DNA of 64,000 nucleotides, taken from a virus. This document shows, piece by piece, positions 1 through 16,443 of the stretch; position 1 is the stretch's first letter; the number at the start of each line of letters is the position of its first letter. The notes under the pieces were generated by a model. The model saw nothing but the letters and a program-made list of their open reading frames with translations, was not told the origin of the DNA and ran no database searches. The DNA is taken from IMG/VR virus record IMGVR_UViG_3300021335_000004; one strand, written 5' to 3'. The position numbers were made by a program, and so were the translations under genes.

Positions 1-2466
1 AGAAGCTCCTGCAAACCTATCAATATCATTATAATTAGTATTTCCGGCATCACTAGGATATTTAGAAGCACCTGCTATTTGATAACCATAATCCATACTA
101 GCGCCTGAAGCTTGTTCCATTCTAGAAGTAGTTAGAGTACTAGATTCAGCAGCATTAGTTTCAGAAGGAAAGACAAACTGTTCCATAGTACTAACTGCTG
201 CTTTTGGACCTGTGATATTACCTGTCCAACCACCTGCTACATAACCTCTATTACTAATACCTAAAGAAAATCCTCCGTGCATTGCTCTACCAGTAGTTAG
301 TGTGTCTACTGAAGATGCTATTGTAGTACTAGGAAAAGTAAAAGAAGCAATATCGGTAGTCATCCCTTCGTTAGTAGGAGAGTTATAGTGCCCATATCCT
401 CCTGCTGAATAAGCTTTATTAGTACTATCTGGAGATATTAACACAGCATGATTAGTAAAAGTATGAGAACTAGTAAGAGTTCCCGGATCTACAGCGACCC
501 CACTCCCAGAGGTAAGTGGAAAGTAAGTTACCTTTCTTAAAGAAGTGTTCGAAGGCTCGTTAATACCGCCGCCGCCTATAGAACCTCCATATGCTTTATT
601 TGATCCAGCAGAGTGATTAGGATAATAGTAACCAGGTTCTCCACTATAAGGACCTACAGGTGGGTAGCTAATCATTCTATTAAAGTAAACATCTCCAGCA
701 CTTGGAACAGAAGCAGCATTAGCAGTGTGCTGAGTAGGTGTTGAGGTTGGTACGTATTGTGAATAAGAATAAGCTGACACAGAGGGAACATTAGTATTAA
801 ATCTGAGATAAGCAAAACCTGGTTGAGCTTGATCTGCATAAGAACTATTTCCCATTATAGCAGCAGGGGTGTCACTAAACCCCTCATGACCTGGAAAACT
901 TACAGGTCCTTGTCTACTACCGCTTGTATAAATTTTACCATAAGTAGCTGGAAAAACAGGAGCTTTCCAATTTCCTCCCGAACCTTTATTAACGGTTAAA
1001 GAGCCTGATCCAGGATATGCCGGTCCTGTGATAGGTACATTTCCTGGAAATCCGGATACTGTCATAGTATTAGGAAAAGTAAGAGTATATCCTACACCTC
1101 CAGCTCCTTGCATCTGTCCGAAAGTTCCGGGCCATGCTGATATAGGTCTATTATGTTCTAAATTGACACCTGCATATCCAGTACCGTCATTAGTGTGTGT
1201 AGGGGTTTTTGCATTTGTACCTGCAGGAAGTGTTCCTACATCACCACCATCTCCGGCTTGTCCTAGTTTAAGTGCTAACATAGACCTATCAGTAACTGAC
1301 ATAGCATAAGGACTTTCTGTAGGCGCAGGAGAAGCTAACTCTGGCTGAGTATCCCATCCATGACGTCTATAACCTTTTTGTAAAAAAGAAAGTTGAGACC
1401 TAGGACCGTTTGTTGCATTTGTATAAGGAGTAGAAGGTATAAATCCTACAGCATAGGGCATACCTGCATCAGCAGCATCAGCGTTTCCCTCTAGCATACC
1501 ACCTCGTTTACCTTGAAGACCTCCACCGGCTACTACGTAGTTAGTACCATTAATATTAACAGAAGTAGTACCTCCACTACCGTCTGCAGGAGCTGATCCT
1601 ATGCTAACCGAAATTGGAGTAGCAGGTGTAACAGGTATAGAGACAGGATAATAACCATGAGCGCCTGCTCCTCCCCCTCCAGCCCCTGCCATGTCTGTTT
1701 GATAAGTATAATGAGGTACCCACCACAACCCTCCATCATAACTAGTCGGGGCTTCAGTAGCTCCAGGACCATCTCCACCAGTATAAAGATAAGGGCCTGT
1801 GCTACCCCCAGCACCGATTGCAGTCCAAATTTGTACTGTAGATACTCCTTCTCCTACTAAATCACCTACTGTAGACCCTAAAGGAGCAGAAGGAGCGTCA
1901 AAAGCCATATCAACAACACCTGCTTTTTTATAAGCAGTAGAAGTATTTTCACTAGGAGACCCTGTTCCAGCATTATTAATGCCACGAATAACAAACTCAT
2001 GAAGAAGTCCTTGGGGTGTTGTAGCATTAGGAATTTTTAGAGTAATAGGAGAGGATGTAATAGGAGTTCCGTTTTCATCAGTACTAACATACGTATATGC
2101 TCCTCCTGCGGGAGCAGGTCTATATCCTATTTCCCAACTATTAGCAGTTTCTCCATTAGTGCTTTCTGTCCACGAAACATCAAACCCAAAAAAAGTATCT
2201 TCAGAAGTAGTAGCCGTAATAGTGGGAGCAGGATGAACAGTAGCTTGAATATTATGAAGTTCATCTAAAGAAATAGCAGTTCCTGGAGTAGAAGGTATCG
2301 AAGATGTTACAAAGGGATCGCTAGAAGTGCCATACCCATACTTCTCCCCCGGTGCAAGAACATTTCCAACACGATAGTCGTCTAACGATCCAGGGGCTGT
2401 TCTAAGGGGAGAGTATAAATCCTTAAGGTTTTGAAGGGAGATTGGTCCTGAAGTTGGAGTTCCCAT
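1..2466 (-). CDS. Large virion/tail adhesin (Gly/Pro/Thr-rich, C-terminal propeller-like repeats); runs off the left edge
   Basis: Missing from the ORF track because it has no stop in the window. ATG at 2466 overlaps the upstream TAA (TAATG). Begins MGTPTSGPISLQNL and the same frame reads ...NYNDIDRFAGAS at position 1. Repeats resemble the IDKFPFxSD repeats at 23273-25372. Confidence 0.75.
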   Translation of the reverse strand, partial: MGTPTSGPISLQNLKDLYSPLRTAPGSLDDYRVGNVLAPGEKYGYGTSSDPFVTSSIPSTPGTAISLDELHNIQATVHPAPTITATTSEDTFFGFDVSWTESTNGETANSWEIGYRPAPAGGAYTYVSTDENGTPITSSPITLKIPNATTPQGLLHEFVIRGINNAGTGSPSENTSTAYKKAGVVDMAFDAPSAPLGSTVGDLVGEGVSTVQIWTAIGAGGSTGPYLYTGGDGPGATEAPTSYDGGLWWVPHYTYQTDMAGAGGGGAGAHGYYPVSIPVTPATPISVSIGSAPADGSGGTTSVNINGTNYVVAGGGLQGKRGGMLEGNADAADAGMPYAVGFIPSTPYTNATNGPRSQLSFLQKGYRRHGWDTQPELASPAPTESPYAMSVTDRSMLALKLGQAGDGGDVGTLPAGTNAKTPTHTNDGTGYAGVNLEHNRPISAWPGTFGQMQGAGGVGYTLTFPNTMTVSGFPGNVPITGPAYPGSGSLTVNKGSGGNWKAPVFPATYGKIYTSGSRQGPVSFPGHEGFSDTPAAIMGNSSYADQAQPGFAYLRFNTNVPSVSAYSYSQYVPTSTPTQHTANAASVPSAGDVYFNRMISYPPVGPYSGEPGYYYPNHSAGSNKAYGGSIGGGGINEPSNTSLRKVTYFPLTSGSGVAVDPGTLTSSHTFTNHAVLISPDSTNKAYSAGGYGHYNSPTNEGMTTDIASFTFPSTTIASSVDTLTTGRAMHGGFSLGISNRGYVAGGWTGNITGPKAAVSTMEQFVFPSETNAAESSTLTTSRMEQASGASMDYGYQIAGASKYPSDAGNTNYNDIDRFAGAS

Positions 2467-4904
2467 TATTTTTCCTCAATTTTTGCTTTTAATTCTTTAA
2501 TAGCTTGAATGAGAAGAGGTACAACTCTACTATAATCAACAGCTAAATAACCATCTTCTCTAGTTTTTACTGCTTCTGGTAGTATTTCTTGAAGACTTTG
2601 TGCAATTACTCCCACATCGTGACCCTCTAAATGCTTGTAATTAAGGCCGGCCTCCCTTGCGTTCCAATCAAACTCAACTCCGGTAATAGAATCTACTTTA
2701 TCTAATGCGGAAACAATTGGGGTTATATTTTTCTTTAAACGAGAATCAGAAGTATTAAATGCTTCGACATCTCCACCTGCGTGAATAGCTCCTTCGACTC
2801 CTAAACCACCTGCTGTAATGATAAGAGCACCTGTATCTTTTGAAGTTGATGCGGTAGCATTTGTTACAGAAAGTGAGTCGGACTCGAGAGTAGTAAAGTT
2901 ACCTGTACCGGGTGTTGTAGCTCCTACATTAGTTCCATCAATAGCGCCTCCATCAATATTTACTGTATTTATAGTAACTGTTGTACCATTAAAGGTAAAG
3001 GTAGAGGCGTCTTGCAATTCTCCACTAGCACCAGCATAAATAACTCTGCCAGAAGTTAAATCAGCCACATTAGCAGAAGCTACTTTTAGCTGTGTTCCTT
3101 GTTTAAGATGAACATTACCAGAACCGTTAGGAGATAAAATTATATCACCATTAGTGTCAGTAGAACTTATAGTTCTTCCATTAAGTTGTAACTGATCAAC
3201 TAAAATATTAGTAGCAACTGAGTTCGTACCAATAGTGACGTCATCTATAGATCCACCATTAATATCAACAGACTGAGCGGTAAGAGTAGTACCATTAAAT
3301 GTCAAGTCTGCATCAGTAACTATTTGACCACTTGTTCCTGTGTATAAAACTCGATTTATAGTTTGTCCTGTTACATAAACATTTGGAGATATTAAATCTC
3401 TTTGAGGACGAACATCTCTTGCGTATACGTCTTGATAACCAGTAACTGTAAGAGAACCTGCTGTTGTACCGTCATCAGTAGTACTAAAAGCAGACCAACC
3501 ATCGTTTGCTTCATCCCAAACCCAAGCCATATTGTCCACAGAAGGACGGTACACTAATAGTCCAGCATCATAAGAAGCAGGAGCAGCCTGATTATTAGCA
3601 ACAACAATTAAAGGATCTTGTACTAAAAGGTTAGTAGCATCAGAAGTAAATGTTGAGCCTTGAACTACAAAATTACCTTCTACAAGCACATCTTGTTCAA
3701 AAGTTTTATCAACAGTAAACTTTTGAGAACCAGAATGGATAGCAGTTACATTATCTTGTACTGTATTAATATTAGAAGTTAAATCGGCGTGTAATCCCTG
3801 TACCGCTGTGTTAGTTGTTGTAGCAAAATAATGAAGGTTGCCTTGTACCAAATTAACATTACTAGAAATACTAGTATGAACAGAGCTAAATCTAGTATTA
3901 GAGTAAGCACCTAATGCATGAACATTTCCTTGAACAGTATCAATACGAGAATTAGAATAAGAACCTGTTATATGTAAATTACTTTGAACAGTATTTATGT
4001 CAGTATTAGCGCTATCAACCCCAAATATTAAAGAATTTATTGAAGTATTTGTAGTAGAGGCATAGTGATGTAAATTCGTTTGTACACGACCGGCGGCAAT
4101 ATCTTGTGTAAGAGTGGCACCGATAATAACTAGATTACCGTTAATTCTTAAATTACCGTTAATCTGCATCTGTGTATCAGGTACAATACCGCCTTCACCG
4201 ACAATTATTTGATCACCTATCTCATCGTTAGCGACATATCTAAATCCATTATCTCCAAAGGTTACTGATTCATATATTGATAAAGTATTGGCTCCTCTAA
4301 TAGCTCCATACATTGTAATATTTCTAATTTGATGATGAGTACCACCTACATCCATAAAACTTCTTAATACTAGATCACCACCAGCTACATCATTATCAAC
4401 TTCATAAATACCAAAATTACGACTAGGAAGAATGGAAGAATTAGCAGTCAATAACTCATTATATTTATAACCATCACTAAAAAATGCCTTACTATGAGCG
4501 TGATCTACTGCAAAGTATCCATTGTAAGTTATAGGAGAAGGAAATTTAACATTACTTTCATAAGCAGTTTTAAAAATAACTCTTGCAGTAGTAACAAAAG
4601 CATTACCATTTTCTGTTGTGAATGTTAGTCCTCCTGATTCAATAGAAGCATTGTTTAAGACAGCATTATCTATTACAGGAAATCCATTAATACGAGTACC
4701 TTGTGACATATGTAAATTAGAATTTACTACAGAAGGCGTGCCTGGGCTATCATTCAAGGTTAACCCTTGCATGGTTACAGTAGTAATATTAACATTATCT
4801 AAGGAAGTTTGTACTGTAGAATCACTAATACCTAAATTATCAATTGCTCCACTTATATTATTGGAGCCAGTACCGCCAAGGGAGACTGGGACTATAGTTG
4901 CCAT
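2466..4904 (-). CDS. Tail fibre protein with C-terminal intramolecular chaperone (peptidase S74)
   Basis: C-terminal SDSRLKKNI...GVIAQ...VDY...LIQAIKEL motif; TVQxNLH coiled-coil repeats; duplicated TFNGTT...GGxID segments. Confidence 0.85.
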   Translation of the reverse strand: MATIVPVSLGGTGSNNISGAIDNLGISDSTVQTSLDNVNITTVTMQGLTLNDSPGTPSVVNSNLHMSQGTRINGFPVIDNAVLNNASIESGGLTFTTENGNAFVTTARVIFKTAYESNVKFPSPITYNGYFAVDHAHSKAFFSDGYKYNELLTANSSILPSRNFGIYEVDNDVAGGDLVLRSFMDVGGTHHQIRNITMYGAIRGANTLSIYESVTFGDNGFRYVANDEIGDQIIVGEGGIVPDTQMQINGNLRINGNLVIIGATLTQDIAAGRVQTNLHHYASTTNTSINSLIFGVDSANTDINTVQSNLHITGSYSNSRIDTVQGNVHALGAYSNTRFSSVHTSISSNVNLVQGNLHYFATTTNTAVQGLHADLTSNINTVQDNVTAIHSGSQKFTVDKTFEQDVLVEGNFVVQGSTFTSDATNLLVQDPLIVVANNQAAPASYDAGLLVYRPSVDNMAWVWDEANDGWSAFSTTDDGTTAGSLTVTGYQDVYARDVRPQRDLISPNVYVTGQTINRVLYTGTSGQIVTDADLTFNGTTLTAQSVDINGGSIDDVTIGTNSVATNILVDQLQLNGRTISSTDTNGDIILSPNGSGNVHLKQGTQLKVASANVADLTSGRVIYAGASGELQDASTFTFNGTTVTINTVNIDGGAIDGTNVGATTPGTGNFTTLESDSLSVTNATASTSKDTGALIITAGGLGVEGAIHAGGDVEAFNTSDSRLKKNITPIVSALDKVDSITGVEFDWNAREAGLNYKHLEGHDVGVIAQSLQEILPEAVKTREDGYLAVDYSRVVPLLIQAIKELKAKIEEK

Positions 4905-4994: not shown

Positions 4995-5510
4995 CTACCG
5001 ATAAAACAAATGGTCTCCAATAATCGTAGTTAATTTTTTTTCGTCTGCCCATTCAGGAGATACATAGTAAGCATGATAATGAATAGACCCTTCTGTAAAG
5101 TCGTATCTTTCGGTATCTAAAAATTCTTCTATATGTATCTTTATATCTAGCCAAATTTCTCGATTGTTAATAACGTCTTTTACTCCATCACAATACCAAG
5201 AAAACTGACAACGATTTTTCACGGGATAAAAAATACGTTCATCATCTGTTAGTGTTTTGTCCTTGCGTGTTTTCCAGCTTTCCCTTACAGGTCCTTCTAA
5301 TACTACTTCGCAAATTGTGTTAGGGTATTTTTCGCTTTTTACTCTATTTAATACAACTAAAACTATAGCAATTTGTCCTGCCAAAGATTGAGTATTAGCC
5401 TCAAAATAAGCATTAGTTGTTAAACAGTCTAAGTCATTACTTAGTAATTCCATCCCTTTTGCTTCTCCAATCGTAAGTAGGAGAAGAAGCGCGCTCAATA
5501 TCTTCTTCAA
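4995..5510 (-). CDS. SleB-like cell wall hydrolase (Hydrolase_2)
   Basis: CL..N.YFEA, V.NRV, CQFSW, YHAYYVSPEW and IGDHLFY motifs; N-terminal signal-like segment. Confidence 0.88.
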   Translation of the reverse strand: MKKILSALLLLLTIGEAKGMELLSNDLDCLTTNAYFEANTQSLAGQIAIVLVVLNRVKSEKYPNTICEVVLEGPVRESWKTRKDKTLTDDERIFYPVKNRCQFSWYCDGVKDVINNREIWLDIKIHIEEFLDTERYDFTEGSIHYHAYYVSPEWADEKKLTTIIGDHLFYR

Positions 5511-6243
5511 TACATTTGTCTCCTTGCTGAACTTCTAGTATAAATAATGGCTCAGTAGTAGAGTAATTACATAATTGATGCCAACTTCCTTGATCAATAT
5601 CAATTGTTTCATGTTGTTTTACTATTTGACCAGGTACTACTCGTGTATTATACACATACGCAGTTCCTTTAACTACATACCAATGTTCAGACCTATGCTC
5701 ATGTTTCTGAAAAGATAATTCTTTATCTGGTAAAACATGAAGTTCTTTTACTTTAACAGACCCGTAATCTTTTAACACAGTCCATGTTCCCCACTCACGA
5801 ACACAATGCTCGCCTGCCCAATTAGACAATAAATGAGATGAAGAAGAGGTTTTTTGTCCTCCTACGTTCCATAGTAGCTCGATATCATTAACTAAACAAT
5901 AATCAACTTCTGGAACATTAGTATTAGACCTATCCCCACCGTTAGCAAAATATAAAAGATTATCCTCTATACCATATATTTCTTTAAACTCTTTTAGCCC
6001 ACTTAGAGCAGTACCATCACTGTCACTCATCACAATAACTTCACAAACTCCTTTGATAGAGTTCATAATATATTGTCTTTGATCCTCATCCATAAAAGGT
6101 TTGCCCTTTTTGTTAGCAAGCCAACTATCAGAATTAAGTAAAATAACTACATTACCTAATTCTGCTGCTTCCTCAATCATCTCTAAATGACCTTTGTGAA
6201 CAGGGTCAAAACCCCCGCTTACTGCTACATACTTATTTGTCAT
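5437..6243 (-). CDS. Cytidylyltransferase-like (RfaE-II/HldC-like) domain fused to a mannose-6-phosphate isomerase type II cupin
   Basis: SGGFDPVHKGH (HxGH) and FANGGDR; C-terminal REWG...LSFQKHEHRSEHW cupin. Confidence 0.8.
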   Translation of the reverse strand: MTNKYVAVSGGFDPVHKGHLEMIEEAAELGNVVILLNSDSWLANKKGKPFMDEDQRQYIMNSIKGVCEVIVMSDSDGTALSGLKEFKEIYGIEDNLLYFANGGDRSNTNVPEVDYCLVNDIELLWNVGGQKTSSSSHLLSNWAGEHCVREWGTWTVLKDYGSVKVKELHVLPDKELSFQKHEHRSEHWYVVKGTAYVYNTRVVPGQIVKQHETIDIDQGSWHQLCNYSTTEPLFILEVQQGDKCIEEDIERASSPTYDWRSKRDGITK

Positions 6244-7483: not shown

Positions 7484-7698
7484 TTACCTATATCCTTTAT
7501 GTTGCTCATGGTTACAATAGTATAAGCTCCTTTATTAAACGCAGGAGCAGTAGGAAAAATACGCTTTTCTTCACCACAATCTAGACACGTATTGTAGCCT
7601 AATTGTTTTCTCTTTATAGAGAAGTCGTCTCCGCAGTCTTCACAAATTGCAGCAAAATTTTTCTTGCTAAAATTCTTATTTAGTGTTATCATAGTCAT
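7480..7698 (-). CDS. DksA/TraR-type C4 zinc-finger small protein
   Basis: CEDCG...R...CLDC; start uncertain. Confidence 0.55.
   Translation of the reverse strand: MTMITLNKNFSKKNFAAICEDCGDDFSIKRKQLGYNTCLDCGEEKRIFPTAPAFNKGAYTIVTMSNIKDIGK
7664..7692 (+). promoter_or_regulatory. Sigma70-type promoter of the radical SAM operon (predicted leaderless)
   Basis: TTGCTA(7664-7669)-N17-TATCAT(7687-7692) with TGn extension; ATG 7699 lies 7 nt downstream. Confidence 0.6.
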
Positions 7699-8292
7699 AT
7701 GAAATTATCCGAACATATACAAAAGTTTTCACAACAGTTATACGAAAAATATAAAAAAGTAAACCCAATAGAAATTATTACTAATTATCATTTTATAAGA
7801 GATGGTAAAGTATTTTACATTGAAAATGCTGAAGAAAATATGGTGTTTCCAAACTCTTATAAAAATACTATATCAAAAATAAAAGCAAAGAGCAAGAACA
7901 CATTTAAAGTAGAAGCCTTTGAAAAGTATGATGAGTTTATATCAGATATATGTAATTATCAAAATAAAAAAGAATATATAGACTGTCATCTGTATTGGGG
8001 AAAAGTAGGAAAATCTAGTTTTATAAGTCATGTAGATCCTTATGATGTAGTAATTTTATTACTATCGGGAAATAAAAAAATGATATTTCCTGATACTAAC
8101 GAAGAAATCATACTAAATCCAGGAGAGATTGTGTATATACCAGGTAATAAAGCACATTATGCAGACAATTTAACAGAAAATATTTCTTTAAGCTTTGGTA
8201 TTAGAAGATATTATAAAGAAATAGATTTAAAGTTACAAACATTACAGATGGAAAAAGATGAAGAATATAACAGTATATCTGAAAACAACTGA
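7699..8292 (+). CDS. JmjC/cupin Fe(II)/2OG oxygenase
   Basis: HVDPYDV...GNKK...LNPGEIVYIPGNKAH; HxD...H facial triad. Confidence 0.8.
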   Translation: MKLSEHIQKFSQQLYEKYKKVNPIEIITNYHFIRDGKVFYIENAEENMVFPNSYKNTISKIKAKSKNTFKVEAFEKYDEFISDICNYQNKKEYIDCHLYWGKVGKSSFISHVDPYDVVILLLSGNKKMIFPDTNEEIILNPGEIVYIPGNKAHYADNLTENISLSFGIRRYYKEIDLKLQTLQMEKDEEYNSISENN

Positions 8293-9295
8293 AACTTGTC
8301 AATTAAATTGTAAACATTGTTTTACCAATGGTATAAATGGTAAAAAAATATTTTTTAATTCAGAAAAAACTCTTAGTTGGATGAAAAAATTAAGAGAGTT
8401 CTATAAAGATAGTCATATTCATTTTGAGTTTCACGGTGGAGAACCTTTTTTAGCTCCTCTATCTGATATGAGGTATATAGTTAATCAAACAAGAGACTGG
8501 GAGAATATTTCTTTTGGTATTACTAGTAATCTTACTTTTAAACTAACTGAAGACAAAATAAATTTTATTATGGAAGATTTAAAAGGTGTCATAGGAACAT
8601 CTTGGGACATGAGTATTAGATTTTCTAACGAAAAACAAAAAGCATTATGGGAAGAAAATGTACTAAGATTAAAAAATTTGGGAGCTTACATAACACTATT
8701 TGTCAGCGTTACAAAAGAGCTTTGTAACACAGATACTCAAGAAATTATAGAGTATATAAACACTCTCAATGTTGATATTGTAGATTTTGAAAGATTAACG
8801 GGACACGGTAACGCACAACTGCACCCAGAAATATTCCCAACTAATAAAGAACAAAGTGATTGGTTTCTAAAATTATATAAAAACAATAGTAAAAAAAATT
8901 GGGAAGATTCTTTTATTAAATCAATGGTTAATACTAGAGTTAATGGTAATCAAACCGCAACTTTTTGCAGAGATTGTGAACAAAAACTATTTACCATTAA
9001 TGCAGATGGTAGTATTAGTGGTTGTCCTAACTCAGCACCTGAAGAAGTATATGGAACAATAGAAGAAGAAATTTGGGAACTTATAGTTAACCCAAAACGA
9101 ATGAAAATAATTGCTTGTGAAGCAGCACGAGATCCTAGATGTTATGAATGTGATGTTTTTGATATTTGCGGAAGTGGTTGTCATCAGCTTGAGTGGGACG
9201 AAACACATTGTCCATCGCCAAAAGAGCTATTTAGATTATTAAAAAACACCCCTATAAAGGAGTTAAAACAAGGAGAGTATTATGTCAGCAATTAA
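8258..9295 (+). CDS. Radical SAM/SPASM enzyme 1
   Basis: CQLNCKHC, FHGGEP, SPASM cysteines CRDC...GCP...CYECDVFDICGSGC...C. Confidence 0.92.
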   Translation: MKNITVYLKTTETCQLNCKHCFTNGINGKKIFFNSEKTLSWMKKLREFYKDSHIHFEFHGGEPFLAPLSDMRYIVNQTRDWENISFGITSNLTFKLTEDKINFIMEDLKGVIGTSWDMSIRFSNEKQKALWEENVLRLKNLGAYITLFVSVTKELCNTDTQEIIEYINTLNVDIVDFERLTGHGNAQLHPEIFPTNKEQSDWFLKLYKNNSKKNWEDSFIKSMVNTRVNGNQTATFCRDCEQKLFTINADGSISGCPNSAPEEVYGTIEEEIWELIVNPKRMKIIACEAARDPRCYECDVFDICGSGCHQLEWDETHCPSPKELFRLLKNTPIKELKQGEYYVSN

Positions 9296-9881
9296 TACAG
9301 GAGATGAGGTAAGTAAAACCGCTGTAGTAAATAGATTTAATGAAGTTATGAGAAGTCAGATTAATCCAATAATTAATGTAGGAACTTCAACATCTTTTAG
9401 TAGTGGTAATTATAATCAATTTACTAACGTGCCTAGTGGAGGAGTTCCTTTTTCAAGAATCGGAACCCCTACAGTAGCACCCGCTGTTACTAGTGGATTA
9501 GGCAGTATTGTAGATGCAGCAGATTTAGCTACATATTTAAGAAATTTAACTCGTGATTATAGTGGAGTTAGAATAACAACATACAGATATAGGTTTAATA
9601 GAACAGGCTATCCTAGCGGTAACGGAAACAAAGTTATATCTTATAGAACTACTGATTATGTACATTATGATGGAGATGTTTATAAACAAACAGTTACAGA
9701 CAATAGTGCTACGTATGACATTGAAGAAGGTGACTTAATAGATGCATCAGATTTTGAAAGTTATATAGCAGATTTATATAATCAGTGGAATTCATTAAAA
9801 AATAATAGAGTAACAGTATTTGTAGATGCTTGTCACTCAAGTTGCCATAGTAATTGTCACGGTTCAAGGGGAAGACGATGA
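9282..9881 (+). CDS. Virion-like protein with C-terminal (CHxx)3-RGRR tail; putative substrate of the operon
   Basis: Ends ACHSSCHSNCHGSRGRR; the only Cys residues are in the tail; internal G-x-I/L-V/I-DA-x-D repeats; T/S/G/N-rich. Confidence 0.7.
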   Translation: MSAINTGDEVSKTAVVNRFNEVMRSQINPIINVGTSTSFSSGNYNQFTNVPSGGVPFSRIGTPTVAPAVTSGLGSIVDAADLATYLRNLTRDYSGVRITTYRYRFNRTGYPSGNGNKVISYRTTDYVHYDGDVYKQTVTDNSATYDIEEGDLIDASDFESYIADLYNQWNSLKNNRVTVFVDACHSSCHSNCHGSRGRR

Positions 9882-10576
9882 GAATAATTAGAACTAAAGC
9901 GCCTATTGATGTAGAGTACTTACAAGAATATTTTTCTTCTGAAGAAGAGATTATTTTTGATATAATGTATTACGACTCTGATATAAAAGGAAAAACACTA
10001 CTTAATTATGTATCTAATTTAGATATTAATTTTGAAATAAATCTATATAAAACCTCACAAGAAGAGAGGTATGATTTATTGAGTAACTATTTTACTACTA
10101 ATTTATTAGTAAATTGTAAACAACTTGAACTAGCTTTGACATATATCGTATTAAAATACAATAATCGTTCAGTCGATGACCTATACTCTTTTACGCTGTT
10201 AAAAGAAGAATATGTAGATAAATTTATTGAAGAACATAGAATACAGTTACTAAATACCACAGATTTTTTAGAATCATTACCAATTACAACACTGTCTTTT
10301 GTAGACTCTTTAAAAGATTTTGTTAATCAAGAATTAAAAAATTATGAAATAATAGATGATCCTGAAATTTTAGGTAAAAACGTAATTAATCTAATTAACA
10401 ATCCTTTTATCTTTAAAATATACGAAACTTCTGGTAGTAGAAAAAGATACTTTAAACACTACGCTGAAGAATATATCTATGACGAATCTAACTTATATGG
10501 TTGGATGGAAAAATATAATGTACCATTACTAGTTTTTGTTTCGGGGATTGCTTCTGGTGTTTTGCCTAGTAAATAA
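9878..10576 (+). CDS. Hypothetical protein in radical SAM operon
   Basis: ATG 9878 overlaps the TGA of the previous gene (ATGA); no recognised motif. Confidence 0.7.
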   Translation: MRIIRTKAPIDVEYLQEYFSSEEEIIFDIMYYDSDIKGKTLLNYVSNLDINFEINLYKTSQEERYDLLSNYFTTNLLVNCKQLELALTYIVLKYNNRSVDDLYSFTLLKEEYVDKFIEEHRIQLLNTTDFLESLPITTLSFVDSLKDFVNQELKNYEIIDDPEILGKNVINLINNPFIFKIYETSGSRKRYFKHYAEEYIYDESNLYGWMEKYNVPLLVFVSGIASGVLPSK

Positions 10577-11693
10577 AATATATTTAGATTATAATTTTTG
10601 TTATGATGCGGAAACACCTAAAATATTAGTAGGGTATAATGATCCTATACCTAATACTTGGAATTATTTTTCGGATGCTGATAAATTATTTGCTAGTAAT
10701 ACTTTAAAGAATATAAATAAAGATACTGAAATAGTAATTCTTGCTAAACAAAATGAGTATGTAAAAGTACTCACTACCTATTTAAAATCTATACTACCTA
10801 ACCACTCAGTCGAGTCTTTGTATCATTTCTATAAATTATTATTACAAAAACATATTTATCTTCATGGTAAATCATGTTTAGCACACGACAACGGCTCTGT
10901 AAATCTAAACTCGCCTTGGAACTCATTATCTTTATTAAATGTTGAAGAATTTAAAAATATATATAATCAATGTAATAAACATCATTTAGATGATTTTTAT
11001 ATAAAAGGTGCAGGAATAGAGTTACAATTAGTTAGTTATTTAGCTAATACTAAATATACACATAAAGACATTTTATATAGTAAATTATATACAATAATCG
11101 CTGATACTGTTTTAAACGAAATTACCTATTGGAAAATGAATGTCATGTGTCAGCTCTTTGAATTAGGAGATTTGATAGAAGGAATTGATTATGGGTCAAA
11201 ATTGTATGAATCTGCAACATATAAAGATTTAAACTTACCAGAAGAATATAGCTGGCTTATGGATGAAAAAATAAAAGCTTATCCAGAACTAGAGTATATG
11301 TTAAAAAACTATGATTTAAAAAATATCTTTAAACTTTATCGTAAATCAGTAATGAAATACGGGCATAATGGGTTTTTTGATAGTGAACAGCTAATGGAGC
11401 TTTTTGTAAGTGGAGATATTAGTTTAAGAAAAATAGTTGATATAGATATTAATACTATATATGCTGGGGGTAATATAGGAGAATATCAACACCAAGATAA
11501 AACTACACATTATTTATTGAGATACTTTTACTTATTATGTAAAGAAAAACGCTATGATAAGTTGTCTGAGTATTCTTTAGAAGAAAAAACTACAAAATTT
11601 AAACCTTTTATAAACTTAAAAAAGAGAAACACTAAAAAAGTAAAAGAATGGGCTCTAAAAGATCACCACAGTTTTAGAGAAGATTATGTATAA
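10536..11693 (+). CDS. Hypothetical protein in radical SAM operon (probable start GTG 10557)
   Basis: 385-aa ORF overlapping both neighbours. Confidence 0.7.
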   Translation: MFRGLLLVFCLVNKIYLDYNFCYDAETPKILVGYNDPIPNTWNYFSDADKLFASNTLKNINKDTEIVILAKQNEYVKVLTTYLKSILPNHSVESLYHFYKLLLQKHIYLHGKSCLAHDNGSVNLNSPWNSLSLLNVEEFKNIYNQCNKHHLDDFYIKGAGIELQLVSYLANTKYTHKDILYSKLYTIIADTVLNEITYWKMNVMCQLFELGDLIEGIDYGSKLYESATYKDLNLPEEYSWLMDEKIKAYPELEYMLKNYDLKNIFKLYRKSVMKYGHNGFFDSEQLMELFVSGDISLRKIVDIDINTIYAGGNIGEYQHQDKTTHYLLRYFYLLCKEKRYDKLSEYSLEEKTTKFKPFINLKKRNTKKVKEWALKDHHSFREDYV

Positions 11694-12675
11694 CACAGTT
11701 ATAGATAAAAAAGCATCTACTCTAGGAGAGGTTATTGTAACACTCTTTGAACACTGTAATCTTGCGTGTAGTTTTTGTTCTCAAAATCATAGTTCATTTA
11801 AGGGTGTGGAATCTATCCCAGAAAAATACTTTGCGATAAAAAGCGTCTACGAAGACTTACGCTCACAAAATAAAGAACAATTTTCATTTCATTTTATGGG
11901 CGGAGAGATTTTGAGTGATCAGATTTCAAATCAAATTTTGAATAAAATTGAAGATTTAATTCTTAGATGTCAGCAATCATTTGAAAACAGTGAATTTCTA
12001 ATAACCTCCAATATGGTATGGAGTAACAGAGATAGAGTAAAACAAATACTAGATAGATTGAATATCAAACTAGCAGTTAGTTACGACCCTGCAGGCCGCT
12101 TTAATACTAAGCAATTTGAACAGTTTATGGGTAATGTTAAATACTTCAAAGAGTATATCACTACGGTAAATATAATATTAACTGCTCCTAACATTTATAA
12201 ATTCTTATCTGATGAAATAATAGGTTTTGATTATCTGTACGAACATTTTAATGTATACTTTGACTATTATACTCCTGAAAAAAACGCTAGTATAAACTGT
12301 CCTACAGACGTAGAACTATTAAACATATTTAAGTATCTGTCTATTAATTATCCTAAAGTAGCACCAATAAACAAGTATTTATCTGGAGAAACTAAGAAAA
12401 ATTTAACTTGTCAAAGAACAAAAGTAATAGCTGCTGATGGAGAAATAGGTCACTGTAATTTACTAGTTGGAGGCAATTATAGAGCATTAGCCCATGATAG
12501 TAGAGATAAAATGGAAGCTAAATGGATAGAGGGCTTTAACTGCTTAATGTGTGACCATTTTAGTAGGTGTGGATTAGGTTGCTTTCAAGAAAACCATATT
12601 TTACCGGAAAAAAGTACTATGGAACATTGCTGGATTAAAGATTATTGGGAGTGGTTAGATGGAACTTATAATTAA
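11686..12675 (+). CDS. Radical SAM/SPASM-like enzyme 2
   Basis: CNLACSFC, FMGGE, C-terminal CQ...HC...CLMCDHFSRCGLGC...HC. Confidence 0.9.
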   Translation: MYNTVIDKKASTLGEVIVTLFEHCNLACSFCSQNHSSFKGVESIPEKYFAIKSVYEDLRSQNKEQFSFHFMGGEILSDQISNQILNKIEDLILRCQQSFENSEFLITSNMVWSNRDRVKQILDRLNIKLAVSYDPAGRFNTKQFEQFMGNVKYFKEYITTVNIILTAPNIYKFLSDEIIGFDYLYEHFNVYFDYYTPEKNASINCPTDVELLNIFKYLSINYPKVAPINKYLSGETKKNLTCQRTKVIAADGEIGHCNLLVGGNYRALAHDSRDKMEAKWIEGFNCLMCDHFSRCGLGCFQENHILPEKSTMEHCWIKDYWEWLDGTYN

Positions 12676-13732
12676 ACCAACAGAGCGTTGTAATTTTAAG
12701 TGTACTTTCTGTTCTAGTACAAAAATTGCAGATTCTAAATCTGTTGAATTGGAACACGAAAAAATATTTACTTTTTTAAAAAGGTTTCCACACACTAATA
12801 CTATTATTGTGAATGGTGGGGATCCTTTGATGATGAAACCTAGTTATTATTGGAAAATAATTAAATATTTAGAAGATAATAATTTGGATACTACAATATC
12901 TTTGACTACTAACTTGTGGCCTTTTTACACTAAACCATCTAAATGGTTATCTCTTTTTCAGCATCCTAGAGTAGGAGTTTGTACTTCTTTTCAATATGGA
13001 GGAGGTAGATTAAAAGGAGATTTTACAGAATTTAGTGAAAAAGATTTTTGGAAAGTATCTGATAAAATGTTAGATCTTGTAGGTTATAGACCTGATTTTA
13101 TTTCTGTAATCACAAAAGAAAATGAAGACAGAGCAATAGATAACGTACTCTTAGCTAAAGAAATGGGAGTAGTGTGTAAACTAAATTATGCTGTCGCAAG
13201 CGGTCCAGAAATTAAATTTCTTAATGGAATTAAAATGGGATTAGAAAACTATACTTATCTTTTAGCAGATATATATGAAATCTATCTTAAAATATATAAA
13301 CAAGGATTAGCCGATTGGGAGTATAATACTACTCAGTTATTAAAAAGATTTTCTTCTAATACTACTTGTCCACAAAACCGAAATTGTGATTCAAATATCA
13401 GAAACTTAAATCCAGGAGGTGACTATTATTCTTGTGGAGCTTTTGGAGATGATAAAGAATATGAAATAGATTTTGATAAAGAAATGAATCAGAGGAAAAT
13501 AGAAACTCCTCTACAAAACTCTATTGAATTATTATCACTAAAGCAAGCGTGTTTTACTTGTCCTATGTTTAAAATTTGCAATGGTTGTAAAAAAACTATC
13601 AGCGATATAAAAAGACTAAACTTAGTAGAGACGCACTGTAAAAAAATGAAGAAACTAGCACCTGAAATAATAGAAATATGTAACCTAGAAGATAAACTAA
13701 CGGAGTATATAGATGAATCAGTATACGCATAG
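12659..13732 (+). CDS. Radical SAM/SPASM enzyme 3
   Basis: CNFKCTFC, NGGDP, CPQNRNC...YSC...CFTCPMFKICNGC...HC. Confidence 0.92.
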   Translation: MELIIKPTERCNFKCTFCSSTKIADSKSVELEHEKIFTFLKRFPHTNTIIVNGGDPLMMKPSYYWKIIKYLEDNNLDTTISLTTNLWPFYTKPSKWLSLFQHPRVGVCTSFQYGGGRLKGDFTEFSEKDFWKVSDKMLDLVGYRPDFISVITKENEDRAIDNVLLAKEMGVVCKLNYAVASGPEIKFLNGIKMGLENYTYLLADIYEIYLKIYKQGLADWEYNTTQLLKRFSSNTTCPQNRNCDSNIRNLNPGGDYYSCGAFGDDKEYEIDFDKEMNQRKIETPLQNSIELLSLKQACFTCPMFKICNGCKKTISDIKRLNLVETHCKKMKKLAPEIIEICNLEDKLTEYIDESVYA

Positions 13733-14510
13733 AAAACTATGGCCTACACCTGTTCTACTAGGAACAGTAGATAAACAATTAGCCAAGGATTTATTTAATT
13801 ATATACTGAGCAAGTACCATAATCCTGATGAAAAAACAGAAGTATTTAACCTGTTTTCTATCGGTGAACCTCTTTTGGATAATTTATACAAAAATTATAT
13901 TGTTCCTGCTACAAAAGAATATATTAAAAATAATTTATTTCAGTCTAACCATTATGAAATAAAATCCTATGCTTGGGCCCATGTATTACCACAAGGACAA
14001 AATGTGGGTATTCATAATCATCCTAACAATCATATAAGTGGCACTATATGGTTAAGCGATCATGATAGTCATCTTTTAATGGTTGATCCAAAAGGTAATT
14101 CTAACATGATGGATTTTGGATATCTAGATTTAGAAATGCTAACTAAAAAAGGTATGACTGTTGGAAATGATGAAATAAGACATAATCATACTTCTAGATA
14201 TAATGAGTATGGTAGACAGATGAATAATAGTACTCTAGATTTTTCTGGATTATTTGGTGACTATGTTGATACATTTGATAAACCAACTCATTCTGTAAAC
14301 CCAACCAACATCACTATTAAACCAGAACTTGGTAAATTTATACTATTTCCCTCATGGGTTTGGCACGAAGTAGAACCTAATCAATCTAAACTGCCTAGGA
14401 TAAGTATATCTTGGGATACTAGAATTACTCCAAAGATAAAAAAAGAGCACAATATTCATTATGAACAAGACATTAGAGTATTAGGAGATGTTCTTGATGT
14501 ACAAAGTTGA
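13713..14510 (+). CDS. 2OG-Fe(II) oxygenase (phage TIGR02466-like)
   Basis: HNHPNNHISG...FPSWVWHEV...RISISW. Confidence 0.82.
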   Translation: MNQYTHRKLWPTPVLLGTVDKQLAKDLFNYILSKYHNPDEKTEVFNLFSIGEPLLDNLYKNYIVPATKEYIKNNLFQSNHYEIKSYAWAHVLPQGQNVGIHNHPNNHISGTIWLSDHDSHLLMVDPKGNSNMMDFGYLDLEMLTKKGMTVGNDEIRHNHTSRYNEYGRQMNNSTLDFSGLFGDYVDTFDKPTHSVNPTNITIKPELGKFILFPSWVWHEVEPNQSKLPRISISWDTRITPKIKKEHNIHYEQDIRVLGDVLDVQS

Positions 14511-14913
14511 AAAAGGTGAACTACACCACTTACCAATACTAATAGCTTTATCCTATAATATGACAGAAGAAGAACGTGATGAAAAAGATGATTTTATCGA
14601 GTTAATAAAAGAACAAAGAGTACATCTACTATATTTAAAAGATAAACCTATTGGATATTATACAGTAGTATCTATTGAGAGAGGAGAGTATCTTGAAACT
14701 ATCTTAATAGATAAAAAGTATCAAGGTAAGGGTGCTATTAATAAATTAGGCGAATATGCAGTAAAGTCAAAAAATGGAAAGCCTCTTTGGGGGTTGAGCC
14801 GTCACAGAAGAGTAGATATGTTATTAAAAAAATTTGGATTTGAACCAAAAGAGTATGAAATTATTAAAGGAGTTAGTTATAGATGGTGGATAAACCGTTT
14901 TCAGTCTCAATAA
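14488..14913 (+). CDS. GNAT family acetyltransferase
   Basis: IDKKYQGKG motif A; KKFGF near the C-terminus. Confidence 0.7.
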   Translation: MFLMYKVEKGELHHLPILIALSYNMTEEERDEKDDFIELIKEQRVHLLYLKDKPIGYYTVVSIERGEYLETILIDKKYQGKGAINKLGEYAVKSKNGKPLWGLSRHRRVDMLLKKFGFEPKEYEIIKGVSYRWWINRFQSQ

Positions 14914-15797
14914 ATCCTAGTTACTTTTGTAATTTTAGGTGTAATTTTTGTTATTTAACTCCTGAACAACTTGGAGATCAGAAAAAAATTGACCCTAAAA
15001 AATTAGATAAGTTGTTATCAAACATACCTAAAATAGATCATATAGACTTATATGGAGGAGAAATTGGAGCGCTCAAGAAAGACTATTACTATGAAATCAA
15101 GTCTGTTATACGTAAACACTATAATGATTACATCAATATTAATACTAATTTTTCTATGCTTGACGACAGATTCTTCGAGGATGATATCACTCTTTCCGTC
15201 TCATATGATTTTTCCGCAAGAGAAAAATCAAAGTTAGTATTTCAAAATATGCTGATGAGTCCAAAACCTATTTCCGTATTAATTCTTGCTTCTGAAGAAG
15301 TATTAAAATTAGATATTAATTCTATGATAAAACAATTAAATATGTGTAAATCAATTATATCTGTAGAAATAAAACCTTATAGTACTAATCAAGCTAATAA
15401 ACACGTTGTTACCCATAAAGATTTTGAAAACTTTGTTATCAAATGGATTGAGAGTCCAGTAAAAAAACGCTTTGAATTTCAAAACCTAAACAGAATAAAG
15501 AGAAGTGTAAGAAAAGAATATAATGCTTTTTCTGACGACCACATCTACATTACTCCAAATGGTAAATATGCTGTATTAGCTTTTGACAAAGAAGATAGTG
15601 AGTATTTTTTAGAATTTACTAACTACTCTAGTTTTGAACAATGGGCTTGGACAGAAAAGAAAACTCTTTCTACTATCTGTAGCGGTTGTTATTGGAAAGG
15701 ACATTGTTTAACTGAACATTATAGACATGTAAAAGATTTAAGAAATAGTTGTAATGGTTATATAAATTTATTAAGTAGATATAGTAATGCGTTTTAG
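14883..15797 (+). CDS. Radical SAM enzyme 4 (reduced auxiliary domain)
   Basis: CNFRCNFC, LYGGE, C-terminal CSGCYWKGHCLTEH...C. Confidence 0.9.
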   Translation: MVDKPFSVSINPSYFCNFRCNFCYLTPEQLGDQKKIDPKKLDKLLSNIPKIDHIDLYGGEIGALKKDYYYEIKSVIRKHYNDYININTNFSMLDDRFFEDDITLSVSYDFSAREKSKLVFQNMLMSPKPISVLILASEEVLKLDINSMIKQLNMCKSIISVEIKPYSTNQANKHVVTHKDFENFVIKWIESPVKKRFEFQNLNRIKRSVRKEYNAFSDDHIYITPNGKYAVLAFDKEDSEYFLEFTNYSSFEQWAWTEKKTLSTICSGCYWKGHCLTEHYRHVKDLRNSCNGYINLLSRYSNAF

Positions 15798-16443
15798 TTT
15801 TTCAGATCATAGCGATAACTTTGATGAGCATATTAATAAAAGTATTATTTCGTATAATAACTTAGTAGATATGATTATTACTGTATCTGGATTTTTTATA
15901 CAAGATAATACAACAGTATATGATTTAGGATGTTCTACTGGTAAAATTTTAAGGAAAATAAAAAAAGCGTCACACGCTAATAATGTTTCGTATATCGGAA
16001 TAGATAATGAAACAGCTTTTTCCCCATACTGGAAAGAAAAAGACATAGAGTTTAAAATTGAAGATGTGAGAAAACTAAAGTTTGATAGTGATGTTTCTTT
16101 AGCTATCTCTACCTTCACTCTTCAATTTTTACCTACTATTGATAGAGTAAAATTATTAAAAAACATATATGATTCTTTAATACCAAACGGAGCATTAATA
16201 CTTTGTGAAAAAACATATTCTAATGATTCTATGTTACAAGAAGTATTTACTTTTGCTAACTATGATTATAAAGCTAAATTTTTTAGATACGATGATATAA
16301 TGTTTAAAGAAAAGGAGTTAAGAGCCTCTATGAATATTAGATCTTGGGACGCTATTTTACAAGAAGTAGAAAAAATAGGATTTAAAAAGTATGAAGTATT
16401 CTGGAAGGCGTATAATTTTGTAGGAGTCATATTGGTAAAATGA
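15787..16443 (+). CDS. CmoA-like class I SAM-dependent methyltransferase
   Basis: FDEHINKSI..Y, VYDLGCSTG and FTLQFL match CmoA-family motifs. Confidence 0.75.
   Translation: MRFSFSDHSDNFDEHINKSIISYNNLVDMIITVSGFFIQDNTTVYDLGCSTGKILRKIKKASHANNVSYIGIDNETAFSPYWKEKDIEFKIEDVRKLKFDSDVSLAISTFTLQFLPTIDRVKLLKNIYDSLIPNGALILCEKTYSNDSMLQEVFTFANYDYKAKFFRYDDIMFKEKELRASMNIRSWDAILQEVEKIGFKKYEVFWKAYNFVGVILVK

Follow-up and report, generated by a model that had tools for sequence, protein, structure and literature searches.

A cassette of four radical-SAM enzymes tied to a probable phage particle protein with a conserved Cys-His-x-Ser/Asn tail

A phage gene within a radical-SAM operon encodes a repetitive C terminus

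In the 64,000-nucleotide viral sequence analyzed here (the window; IMG/VR record IMGVR_UViG_3300021335_000004), a gene at 9282..9881 encodes a 199-amino-acid (aa) protein that ends in CHSS-CHSN-CHGS-RGRR and lies among genes for radical-SAM enzymes. This raises the question of what kind of protein carries such a tail and whether the tail is a substrate of the enzymes encoded around it. All features described below are on the same (+) strand as this gene, referred to as the tailed gene. It is preceded by the SD sequence AAGGAG (9270-9275), its start overlaps the 3' end of the upstream radical-SAM gene (rSAM1) by 14 nt, and its stop shares ATGA with the start of the next gene. The tail, C184 to R199 (9831..9878), consists of three C-H-x-S/N units followed by R-G-R-R at the extreme C terminus and is predicted to be disordered. 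The units are encoded by tgt cac tca agt (9831-9842), tgc cat agt aat (9843-9854), and tgt cac ggt tca (9855-9866), with the R-G-R-R codons and the stop at 9867-9881. An initial annotation made from the sequence had placed all three cysteines in a period-4 repeat at 9831-9866. The reading frame is real, and C184, C188, and C192 are indeed the sole cysteines of the protein.

The tailed protein matched phrog_35144 alone among the PHROGs, a family of unassigned function. Pfam and NCBIfam scans of the protein and 58 relatives returned nothing meaningful, even at E values up to 10, and no signal-like N terminus was visible in the sequence. A tblastn search of 50,697 phage records gave no match at 1e-3, and homologs in jumbo phages were reached only via the neighboring gene. 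A text search of the literature for the tail motif gave only unrelated results among the matches listed.

The tail is conserved more strongly than any other part of the family

The tail signature was found in 557 clusters (50% identity). A terminal (CHxx)n tail was present in 205 of 219 sampled family sequences, 202 of which have exactly three terminal C-H-x-S/N units, usually with RGRR next; the fourth place of units 1, 2, and 3 is S or N in 186, 180, and 184 of 189 tails, respectively. The tail was unchanged in 12 metagenome homologs, with identity as low as 27%, and in 80/80 IMG/VR loci. Family bodies diverge to ~20% identity, and in an alignment of 59 tailed-protein sequences (A2) mean column identity is 17%; the Cys and His residues of the tail, together with R196, G197, R198, and R199, are invariant in this alignment, and S187 and S195 are conserved at ≥90%. 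Judged from these comparisons, the tail pattern is far above chance expectation, and no other part of the family is conserved as strongly as the tail. Across 71 distinct DNA sequences encoding the tail, both Cys codons, both His codons, Ser codons of both boxes, and Arg codons of both boxes are used. As the residues are fixed while synonymous codons vary freely, selection acts at the protein level, in agreement with what had been proposed from the differing codons of the three units in the window.

Tailed proteins are ~125 to 365 aa long. Variants include proteins with adhesin-type domains (He_PIG, DUF285) C-terminal to six CHxx units and others with a Gly-rich N-terminal extension.

The body is predicted to be folded and contains an internal duplication

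An AF2 model of the tailed protein has a pLDDT of 78 overall and of <50 for residues 188 to 198, predicting a folded body with a disordered C-terminal tail, as expected had the body served as a carrier of the tail in the way first suggested. Because the tail is predicted to be disordered beyond the last strand, it would be accessible. Segments of the form G-x-[IL]-[VI]-D-A-x-D are present at aa 74 to 82 and 150 to 158, and both fall inside an internal duplication of aa 70 to 103 and 146 to 179, detected by hhalign of the two subalignments (probability, 85%; E = 5.9e-6). The first unit of this duplication (9489..9590) comprises GSIVDAADL, a helix, and a strand, modeled at residues 79 to 93 and 96 to 105, respectively, and the second (9717..9818) comprises GDLIDASDF, a helix (155 to 172), and the last strand (177 to 183), which leads into the tail.

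The recurrence of this segment, on which the initial annotation had based a resemblance to phage fiber and collar proteins, was borne out by the duplication, but the resemblance itself found no sequence or fold match. Foldseek comparison of the monomer model with the PDB, proposed at that stage as a check for kinship with virion proteins, returned nothing at E values up to 0.001. The highest Z reached by VIA-align with 48,161 chains was 3.6, comparison with the ESM Atlas gave TM-scores of ≤0.30, and a BFVD search returned uncharacterized homologs only. By these searches, the modeled body matches no recognized fold, a result that leaves room for a fiber fold.

Four radical-SAM enzymes accompany the tailed gene

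Gene linkage was counted over 82 phage loci holding the tailed gene. The genes usually follow each other as cupin, rSAM1, tailed gene, and phrog_20767 protein, and the reading frames overlap in this window. The first cassette gene (7699..8292; 61/82 loci) encodes a JmjC-like cupin, a putative Fe(II)/2OG oxygenase (PF08007 JmjC_2; E = 2.9e-11), in which H111, D113, and H153 of the H-x-D...H triad are ≥90% conserved in 32 homologs. It is followed by radical SAM/SPASM enzyme 1 (rSAM1; 8258..9295; 76/82 loci), which matches Radical_SAM, Fer4_12, and SPASM TIGR04085 and has C14, C18, and C21 plus eight more invariant Cys. Immediately downstream of the tailed gene is a conserved gene for a protein of unassigned function (9878..10576; phrog_20767, E = 1.5e-35; 71/82 loci) with homologs in jumbo phages. 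This protein had no Pfam match and no NCBIfam match at E values up to 0.01, and an Atlas feature search with it gave no usable match. Radical SAM enzyme 2 (rSAM2; 11686..12675; 75/82 loci) has SPASM-type Cys, with C24, C28, and C31 plus seven conserved Cys, and radical SAM/SPASM enzyme 3 (rSAM3; 12659..13732; 73/82 loci) is the best conserved cassette gene, with a mean identity of 63% over 49 loci. A 2OG-Fe(II) oxygenase (PF13759; 13713..14510) is present in 38/82 loci. Radical SAM enzyme 4 (rSAM4; 14883..15797; 66/82 loci) is twitch-like, conserving C16, C20, and C23 and four C-terminal Cys (C266, C269, C275, and C290). Three genes are accessory: one for a phrog_36207 protein (10536..11693), found mainly in close relatives (5/82 loci), and two restricted to close relatives, encoding a GNAT-like acetyltransferase that scores below Pfam cutoffs (14488..14913; 4/82 loci) and a SAM-dependent methyltransferase (15787..16443; Methyltransf_25, E = 2.5e-9; 3/82 loci). 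The location of the tailed gene within a radical-SAM/SPASM operon is thus upheld by the Pfam and NCBIfam matches and by the 82 loci. ThyX adjoins the operon in this window. A promoter and terminator scan of the operon was uninformative, with promoter-like sites fewer than in shuffled sequence.

The CxxxCxxC motif is kept in 4/4 radical-SAM enzymes, with seven to nine further Cys in three of them and four in the fourth, and it begins within residues 11 to 31 in each. So early a motif means that there is no N-terminal leader-binding extension, which fits recognition of a short, fixed tail. The best NCBIfam matches of these enzymes, all weak, were PapB, anSME, DynA, YhhB, DarE, HxsB/C, and XyeB; scores against characterized maturase families were 5- to 20-fold under the cutoffs, and phmmer searches with the four enzymes against PDB sequences found no match. 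From their sequences, the cassette enzymes look active and directed at a peptide or protein, and their conservation greatly exceeds that of the tailed protein. A prediction of the complex of rSAM1 (alignment A3), the tailed protein (A2), SAM, and three 4Fe-4S clusters gave a score of 0.01 and a mark of 0.32, which is neutral on binding. Neither a protease nor an exporter was found in the conserved core (Pfam and NCBIfam, 82 loci), nor was a second conserved candidate substrate found within the core cassette.

The cassette is shared by distant phages and Bdellovibrio-like bacteria

The same gene order was found in RSL2, RSF1, Phosso, Atu_ph07, and pPa_SNUABM_DT01, and the carriers comprise marine myoviruses and jumbo phages of Ralstonia, Burkholderia, Agrobacterium, Sinorhizobium, and Pseudomonas. 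The tailed gene lies near fiber or baseplate genes in this window, Atu_ph07, and Phosso. In RSF1, whose cassette contains dihydrofolate reductases, the tailed ORF071 is annotated as "hypothetical" and its neighbor ORF067 as a virion structural protein. rSAM3 shares 56 to 63% identity with the jumbo-phage copies, and no relative of this phage's DNA polymerase above about 40% identity was found; such identity between very different phages, set against that of the polymerase, suggests strong constraint together with repeated transfer of the cassette. Genome papers found in a literature search on radical SAM and phage structure name the genes without interpreting them.

The cassette was also identified on Bdellovibrio-like chromosomes. 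It is flanked by transporter genes on a 299-kb contig, a second locus has lipid-metabolism genes in its flanks, and one locus adjoins fiber-like genes. Misbinning of phage contigs was considered as the source of these matches and was ruled out for at least one, as the 299-kb contig holds two EF-G/LepA-type GTPase genes.

A tailed homolog was detected in purified phage particles

Atu_ph07 gp170, a tailed homolog with the C terminus CHSSCHASCHNSRSRR, was detected in purified particles by 8 unique peptides, with 35% coverage (PMC6102473 Table S5). Although its mass is 31.9 kDa, gp170 peaks in gel slice 1, in the range of 90- to 140-kDa proteins (PMC6102473), and a top-slice peak was found for only 3 of about 52 listed Atu_ph07 proteins of 25 to 45 kDa; none of the cassette enzymes is on the particle list (PMC6102473 Table S5). 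The data come from one PEG-purified preparation (PMC6102473) that also held SSB, ribonucleotide reductase, and terminase, so that contamination is possible. On this evidence, the 199-aa protein probably forms part of the phage particle, and the initial designation as a structural protein gains support from the detection of its homolog in purified particles. That annotation had named two outcomes that would speak against it, a tail not conserved among homologs and a protein both absent from virions and unmodified, and neither was found.

The cassette differs from known radical-SAM systems

In the HXS antiphage system, the effector HxsA, which has His-Xaa-Ser repeats, is accompanied by the radical-SAM enzymes HxsB and HxsC and by HxsD (TIGR03976-03979), and a site-specific +8-Da change in HxsA was mapped to an S-H-R-S-S unit (Li et al. 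2026, PMC13128918). As in the cassette, a whole protein bears tandem H-x-S units with basic residues around them and is encoded with several radical-SAM enzymes and a small partner. However, HXS is a periplasmic defense system of bacteria, and its effector HxsA combines a peptidoglycan-binding domain with N-terminal processing, whereas the tailed protein is phage encoded (and also found in Bdellovibrio-like bacteria), lacks a peptidoglycan-binding domain, has an invariant Cys before each His, and carries its repeats at the extreme C terminus, with four radical-SAM enzymes and a cupin alongside. The cassette enzymes reached 27.1 bits against HxsB TIGR03978 (cutoff, 370) and 34.4 bits against HxsC TIGR03977 (cutoff, 267.9), in the N-terminal radical-SAM core only. 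The HxsA models of NCBIfam matched none of the tailed proteins scanned, no Pfam domain was found in the tailed protein of this window, and the phrog_20767 protein had no NCBIfam match to HxsD TIGR03976 at E values up to 0.01.

Triceptide, or three-residue cyclophane, systems (XyeB, YhhB, FxsB, GrrM/OscB, HaaB, and HtkB; e.g., PMC11499958) resemble the cassette in pairing adjacent rSAM/SPASM enzymes with a repeated motif of an aromatic residue or His, any residue, and a small polar residue. The tail contains the triceptide core motif as H-x-S/N three times, and the S or N at the third place of this motif (180 to 186 of 189 tails) fits a beta-carbon acceptor, as in triceptides, where a C-C bond links this carbon to the ring. 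Their substrates, however, are short leader-core peptides whose products are released, whereas the candidate substrate here is a folded protein with an invariant Cys in each unit. The scores were 43 bits for YhhB (E = 2.5e-11; cutoff, 445), 30 for FxsB (370), 27 for XyeB (450), and 17 for GrrM (310). The initial annotation had likened the His-x-Ser/Asn beside each Cys to both kinds of system; the pattern is there, but the enzymes fall far under the cutoffs of the HXS and triceptide maturases.

The thioether-forming systems, which include the ranthipeptide enzyme PapB (Cys-X3-Asp repeats), the sactipeptides, and QhpC, a protein matured by QhpD, resemble the cassette in combining regularly spaced Cys within short repeats and SPASM enzymes that have two auxiliary clusters. 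QhpC shows that proteins can acquire cross-links of the thioether kind. A recently described archaeal case shows the same (PMC13692751). Among NCBIfam models, rSAM1 matches PapB best (E = 3.3e-14; 52.9 bits; cutoff, 340), and the SCIFF maturase TIGR03974 gave 16.8 bits (cutoff, 425). The tail differs from these substrates in having no acidic acceptor after Cys, and its His residues, which a plain thioether would not need, are conserved as strongly as Cys.

The targets of the anaerobic sulfatase-maturating enzyme (anSME) have the motif C/S-x-P/A-x-R, including C-x-P-S-R, which the last tail unit, C-H-[GS]-S-R, resembles. The anSME substrate is a folded protein, as is proposed here, and anSME, like rSAM1 (TIGR03942; E = 1.4e-12; 47.3 bits; cutoff, 349), has no N-terminal leader-binding domain, a CxxxCxxC motif near residue 15, and a Cys-rich SPASM region. 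Unlike anSME targets, the tail has G/S where P/A is expected and Cys rather than Arg after the first two units, and no sulfatase domain was found in the tailed protein (Pfam). CXXX-repeat radical-SAM target systems share with the tail a tandem Cys at every fourth residue and an adjacent radical-SAM maturase. The corresponding maturase model, TIGR04115, gave 20.1 bits (cutoff, 350) with rSAM2 only, and the target-family models matched none of 59 tailed members at E values up to 10. By score, the cassette is outside the HXS, triceptide, and sulfatase-maturase families and appears to be outside the CXXX-repeat family. An Atlas neighbor cluster, in which PF27846 is present on 25% of members (score, 0.83), is a lead only; PF27846 was not returned by the Pfam scan of the 59 members, a scan that may not have covered this family.

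Proposed maturation of the tail and alternative explanations

The known substrates of radical-SAM maturation are small peptides and a few proteins. The cassette described here links four radical-SAM enzymes and an oxygenase, as a constant set, to a single protein that probably belongs to the virus particle. This association persists in hundreds of phage lineages and suggests that such a protein undergoes a chemical finishing step not described before. From the constancy of the tail, the gene linkage, the catalytic residues, and the one homolog found in particles, we infer, with a probability of roughly 60%, that the tail of a particle protein is the substrate of the co-encoded enzymes, in a RiPP-like maturation of a whole folded protein. 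A compact body built on the duplicated helix-strand unit would display the flexible 16-residue tail, on which the JmjC-like Fe(II)/2OG oxygenase, three rSAM/SPASM enzymes, and one twitch-type rSAM enzyme would act posttranslationally, before or during particle assembly, with the phrog_20767 protein as a possible chaperone or recognition partner. The likeliest chemistry would be a radical cross-link in each unit from the His ring and/or the Cys sulfur to the beta- or alpha-carbon of Ser/Asn, of the cyclophane or thioether type. The next candidate would be oxidation of Cys in the last C-H-G/S-S-R unit, as in sulfatase maturation, and hydroxylation of Arg or His by the cupin is a further possibility. 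The product could be a rigid tip, possibly metal binding or covalently stapling, that stabilizes or anchors a fiber or baseplate-module protein.

The tail might instead be an unmodified site for Zn, Fe, Ni, or Cu, formed by three Cys and three His and perhaps shared between subunits, with the radical-SAM enzymes directed at another molecule, such as a different protein of the particle. Both Cys and His commonly serve as metal ligands, and their i/i+4 spacing would align them on one helix face; disorder in the monomer model is expected if a metal or an oligomer orders the tail, and a very stable metal-bridged oligomer could account for the migration of gp170 in the top slice. We nevertheless consider such a site unlikely, given that nonligand positions (the S/N at the fourth place and the terminal R-G-R-R) are equally fixed, that translation of the tailed gene is coupled to that of rSAM1, that this gene and the enzyme set are inherited together in >70/82 loci, and that the core cassette is without another conserved candidate substrate.

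In a further reading, the protein could be a carrier or precursor rather than the end product, either a scaffold for a cofactor-like group or a long leader from which the tail is released as a modified peptide, and here the better conservation of the enzymes than of the body would make sense, as would the number of distinct conserved radical-SAM enzymes, since four exceed the needs of most peptide cross-linking systems and recall the PQQ and mycofactocin pathways. This is quite improbable in view of a conserved core without protease or exporter, the eight gp170 peptides, presumably derived from the body, in Atu_ph07 particles, and the members with folded domains C-terminal to the repeats, which are unlike a released C-terminal core. 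Alternatively, the cassette could modify nucleic acid (tRNA or phage DNA), with the tailed protein as an accessory, such as an Fe-S or metal donor. Wybutosine synthesis also pairs JmjC with radical SAM, the operon in this window includes the SAM methyltransferase and other small genes, and genes for ThyX and, in RSF1, dihydrofolate reductases lie beside or within the cassette. Against this, the methyltransferase, GNAT, and small genes are present in only 3 to 14 of 82 loci, the constant core consisting of the four enzymes together with the tailed gene; the families that the SPASM enzymes match best comprise maturases of peptides and proteins; and the Atu_ph07 particle list has the tailed protein and none of the enzymes, so that we regard a nucleic acid target as very doubtful.

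If the tail is modified by the co-encoded enzymes, it offers a defined 16-residue substrate, four uncharacterized and highly conserved enzymes, and cultured carriers for testing (Atu_ph07, RSL2, S13/FLC6, and pPa_SNUABM_DT01). Such maturation would be a new enzymatic step in particle assembly and would assign a role to genes so far recorded in genome papers only as accessory or of unassigned function. It is conceivable, though on balance we would not expect it, that in phages and Bdellovibrio-like predators the four-radical-SAM pathway makes a new cross-linked (Cys-His-x-Ser)x3 structure, possibly metal binding or intermolecularly stapling, on a particle or fiber protein. In that case, the top-of-gel migration of gp170 would result from its covalent attachment to another copy of itself or to a large partner, and the structure would represent the first radical cross-link known to be installed by enzymes in a virus particle, as well as a new class of RiPP chemistry at the protein scale.

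Radical-SAM genes are also carried by phages RP12 and RP31, in a layout unlike that of this cassette, and by Campylobacter phage CP220 and cyanophage S-SCSM2R.

Conservation of the Cys-His tail

The tailed gene (9282-9881, + strand) is an ORF of 199 residues, and the final 16 residues of its product, C-H-S-S-C-H-S-N-C-H-G-S-R-G-R-R, contain all of its Cys residues. A strong ribosome-binding site, AAGGAG, precedes it at 9270-9275. The last 14 nt of the upstream radical-SAM gene (8258-9295) overlap its start, and at its other end ATGA (9878-9881) combines its TGA with the ATG of the gene that follows.

A first search identified 12 metagenome proteins with an identical tail pattern at identities down to 27%. 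A profile built from these 12 homologues hit 557 clusters (50% identity) in a search of 1.84 billion database representatives; the E value was 1e-10 or lower for 169 of these clusters. A motif-guided scan of IMG/VR yielded 218 stretches, of which 111 were confirmed as relatives. The pattern C-H-x-[SN]-C-H-x-x-C-H-x-[SA]-R-[GS]-R-R, directly before the stop codon, was present in 80/80 IMG/VR loci fetched. A terminal (CHxx)n tail was found in 205 of 219 sequences, with exactly three units in 202; of 189 tails, 186, 180, and 184 had Ser or Asn at position 4 of units 1, 2, and 3, respectively, and the ending was RGRR in 157 and RSRR in 21. Mean column identity in a 59-sequence alignment was 17%, and invariance was confined to the initiator Met and to ten residues of the tail (three Cys, three His, R196, G197, R198, and R199). 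Among 71 distinct tail DNAs, both Cys codons, both His codons, and Ser and Arg codons of both boxes were used, so the constraint lies on the peptide and not on the DNA or RNA. This bears out the initial annotation, which had argued that the tail is kept at the protein level from codons that do match those in the ORF.

Cassette enzymes co-occurring with the tailed gene

To assess co-occurrence, the ORFs of 82 loci carrying the tailed gene were searched with the operon proteins of the window. The radical-SAM enzymes rSAM1 to rSAM4 were found at 76, 75, 73, and 66 loci, with mean identities to the window copies of about 47%, 35%, 63%, and 56%, respectively; the uncharacterized protein phrog_20767 was found at 71 (30%) and the JmjC-like cupin at 61 (28%). 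A 2OG oxygenase occurred at 38 loci, and GNAT, methyltransferase, and other small genes at 3-14. The tailed protein, present at all 82, had a mean identity of about 27%; conservation is much higher in the enzymes. The usual gene order was cupin, rSAM1, tailed gene, phrog_20767. All four rSAM enzymes retain CxxxCxxC, with 7-9 further Cys kept in rSAM1, rSAM2, and rSAM3 (SPASM type) and four in rSAM4 (twitch type), and the cupin keeps H111, D113, and H153. The best curated-family matches of the enzymes were peptide or protein maturases (PapB, anSME, CbpB, DynA, YhhB, DarE, HxsB/C, and XyeB), with scores always 5-15% of the family cut-offs.

Evidence for particle association and a proposed role for the tail

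The homologue of the tailed protein in Agrobacterium phage Atu_ph07 is gp170 (AUZ94952.1; 296 aa), with the C-terminal end CHSSCHASCHNSRSRR; its gp number was derived from that of gp180, whose gene is 13,350 bp long, and the masses of gp176 and gp177 served as a check. The published particle proteome includes gp170 (31.89 kDa, 8 unique peptides, 35% coverage) in gel slices 1-9 with its maximum in slice 1 (PMC6102473, Table S5), which supports particle association of the homologue. Slice 1 is the gel top, where 94-139 kDa proteins peak, and 29-34 kDa proteins have their maximum in slices 7-8 (PMC6102473); only 3 of about 52 listed 25-45 kDa proteins peak in slice 1. The position of gp170 is a hint that the protein exists in a high-mass form that is very stable or covalent. 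None of the cassette enzymes, the cupin, or the phrog_20767 partner is in the Atu_ph07 particle list (Table S5). Two points call for caution about particle association. The preparation was purified by PEG only and also contained replication proteins (PMC6102473). In the record of Ralstonia phage RSF1, ORF067 is annotated as virion structural and the tailed ORF071 is not among such proteins.

The simplest account of the evidence, to which we give a probability of roughly 60%, is that the tail is a substrate of the surrounding enzymes, since its 16 residues are fixed while the body drifts, its gene is translationally coupled to a SPASM enzyme, and it is inherited together with four radical-SAM enzymes that are catalytically intact. 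The fixed residues also include non-ligand positions, which argues for a substrate over an unmodified metal site; that alternative shares the remaining probability with a carrier or released-peptide role and with a nucleic-acid pathway in which the tailed protein is an accessory. If the tail is a substrate, its invariance could be explained by a need to fit several enzymes, and the product would be a particle or fibre-module protein whose tip has been chemically finished.

Several known systems offer parallels. The H-x-S/N of the tail fits the logic of triceptide and HXS systems and its regularly spaced Cys that of thioether systems, and C-H-G/S-S-R, its final unit, is similar to the sulfatase motif C-x-P-S-R; curated scores place the enzymes in none of the triceptide, HXS, thioether, or sulfatase-maturase families. 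For the JmjC-like cupin, hydroxylation of Arg or His is a possible reaction.

Structure and variants of the body

AlphaFold2 with the 59-sequence alignment gave a confident alpha/beta model (pLDDT 78, pTM 0.77) in which residues 188-198 are disordered. The two G-x-I/L-V/I-D-A-x-D segments previously pointed out are present and form part of a helix-strand unit duplicated within the body (aa 70-103 and 146-179; hhalign probability 85%, E 6e-6). The proposed likeness of the body to fibre or collar proteins found no support in sequence or fold, as the model resembled nothing outside the family among the solved or predicted structures searched and no Pfam or NCBIfam model matches the protein.

Some family members carry extra modules of kinds typically seen in surface-exposed adhesins. 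P0090 has a Gly-rich N-terminal extension, and six non-terminal CHxx units precede a He_PIG Ig-like domain in P0122 and a DUF285 repeat domain in P0159, which adjoins a 1,507-aa Big_2/DUF285 protein. P0108 and L095:6233-7501 are likewise listed as six-unit variants whose units are not terminal, and a Cys-rich extension after the repeats also occurs among such variants. Two tandem short copies of the tailed gene (124-140 aa) are found in some phages (L064:6118-6935, L076:9788-10623, and L080:9854-10611), with a full tail on both copies and the radical-SAM genes several kilobases away.

Distribution of the cassette

The cassette was identified in Ralstonia phages RSL2, RSF1, RsoM3USA, and FLC4 isolates; Burkholderia phages FLC6, FLC8, and SURPRISE13; Agrobacterium phage Atu_ph07; Sinorhizobium phage Phosso; and Pseudomonas phage pPa_SNUABM_DT01, whose genome papers give the enzymes as accessory or unknown-function genes. 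The rSAM3 of the window's marine phage (12659-13732, + strand) shares 56-63% identity with that of jumbo phages (phiKZ-like and Rak2-like), whereas its DNA polymerase had no match above about 40%, suggesting that the cassette moves between unrelated phages.

Outside phages, a search of one genome per species (185,579 species) found only 11 relatives, five of them in Bdellovibrio-like assemblies, all five of which carry the cassette. One copy lies on a 299-kb contig with two EF-G/LepA-type GTPase genes, flanked by an ABC transporter, a phosphonate-binding protein, and two proteins (L091:17708-18754, + strand; L091:19363-20109, - strand) that share a domain characteristic of trimeric fibres, the endosialidase chaperone (Peptidase_S74); one of the two has a prepilin-type N-terminal methylation motif. 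The GTPase and flanking genes rule out a mis-binned phage contig, which makes at least this copy a chromosomal one; the cassette is again beside fibre-like genes. At another Bdellovibrio-like locus the flanking genes encode FabH and an acyl-CoA synthetase. Bdellovibrio-like cassettes also have an extra radical-SAM enzyme of the B12-binding type and a second gene resembling rSAM1 (L091:7264-8991, + strand; L085:18932-20602, + strand), neither of which is in the window.

The window itself is from a large tailed phage: besides tail-fibre genes and baseplate-like ones, it encodes a DNA polymerase of family A, a DnaB-type helicase, and an NAD-dependent ligase. The C-terminal part of an 812-aa protein (2466-4904, - strand) matches many PHROG tail-fibre families, and the cassette therefore adjoins a host-recognition module. 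The stretch that separates the tail-fibre genes from the cassette encodes a SleB-type cell-wall hydrolase (4995-5510, - strand) and a fusion of a cytidylyltransferase with a mannose-6-phosphate-isomerase-type cupin (5437-6243, - strand). A promoter-like TTGCTA-17-TATCAT with an upstream TG (7664-7692, + strand) directly precedes the first cassette gene; the whole scan gave fewer such sites than shuffled sequence. Convergent with the operon end is a gene for ThyX, a flavin-dependent thymidylate synthase (18264-18920, - strand; PF02511, E 4e-43).
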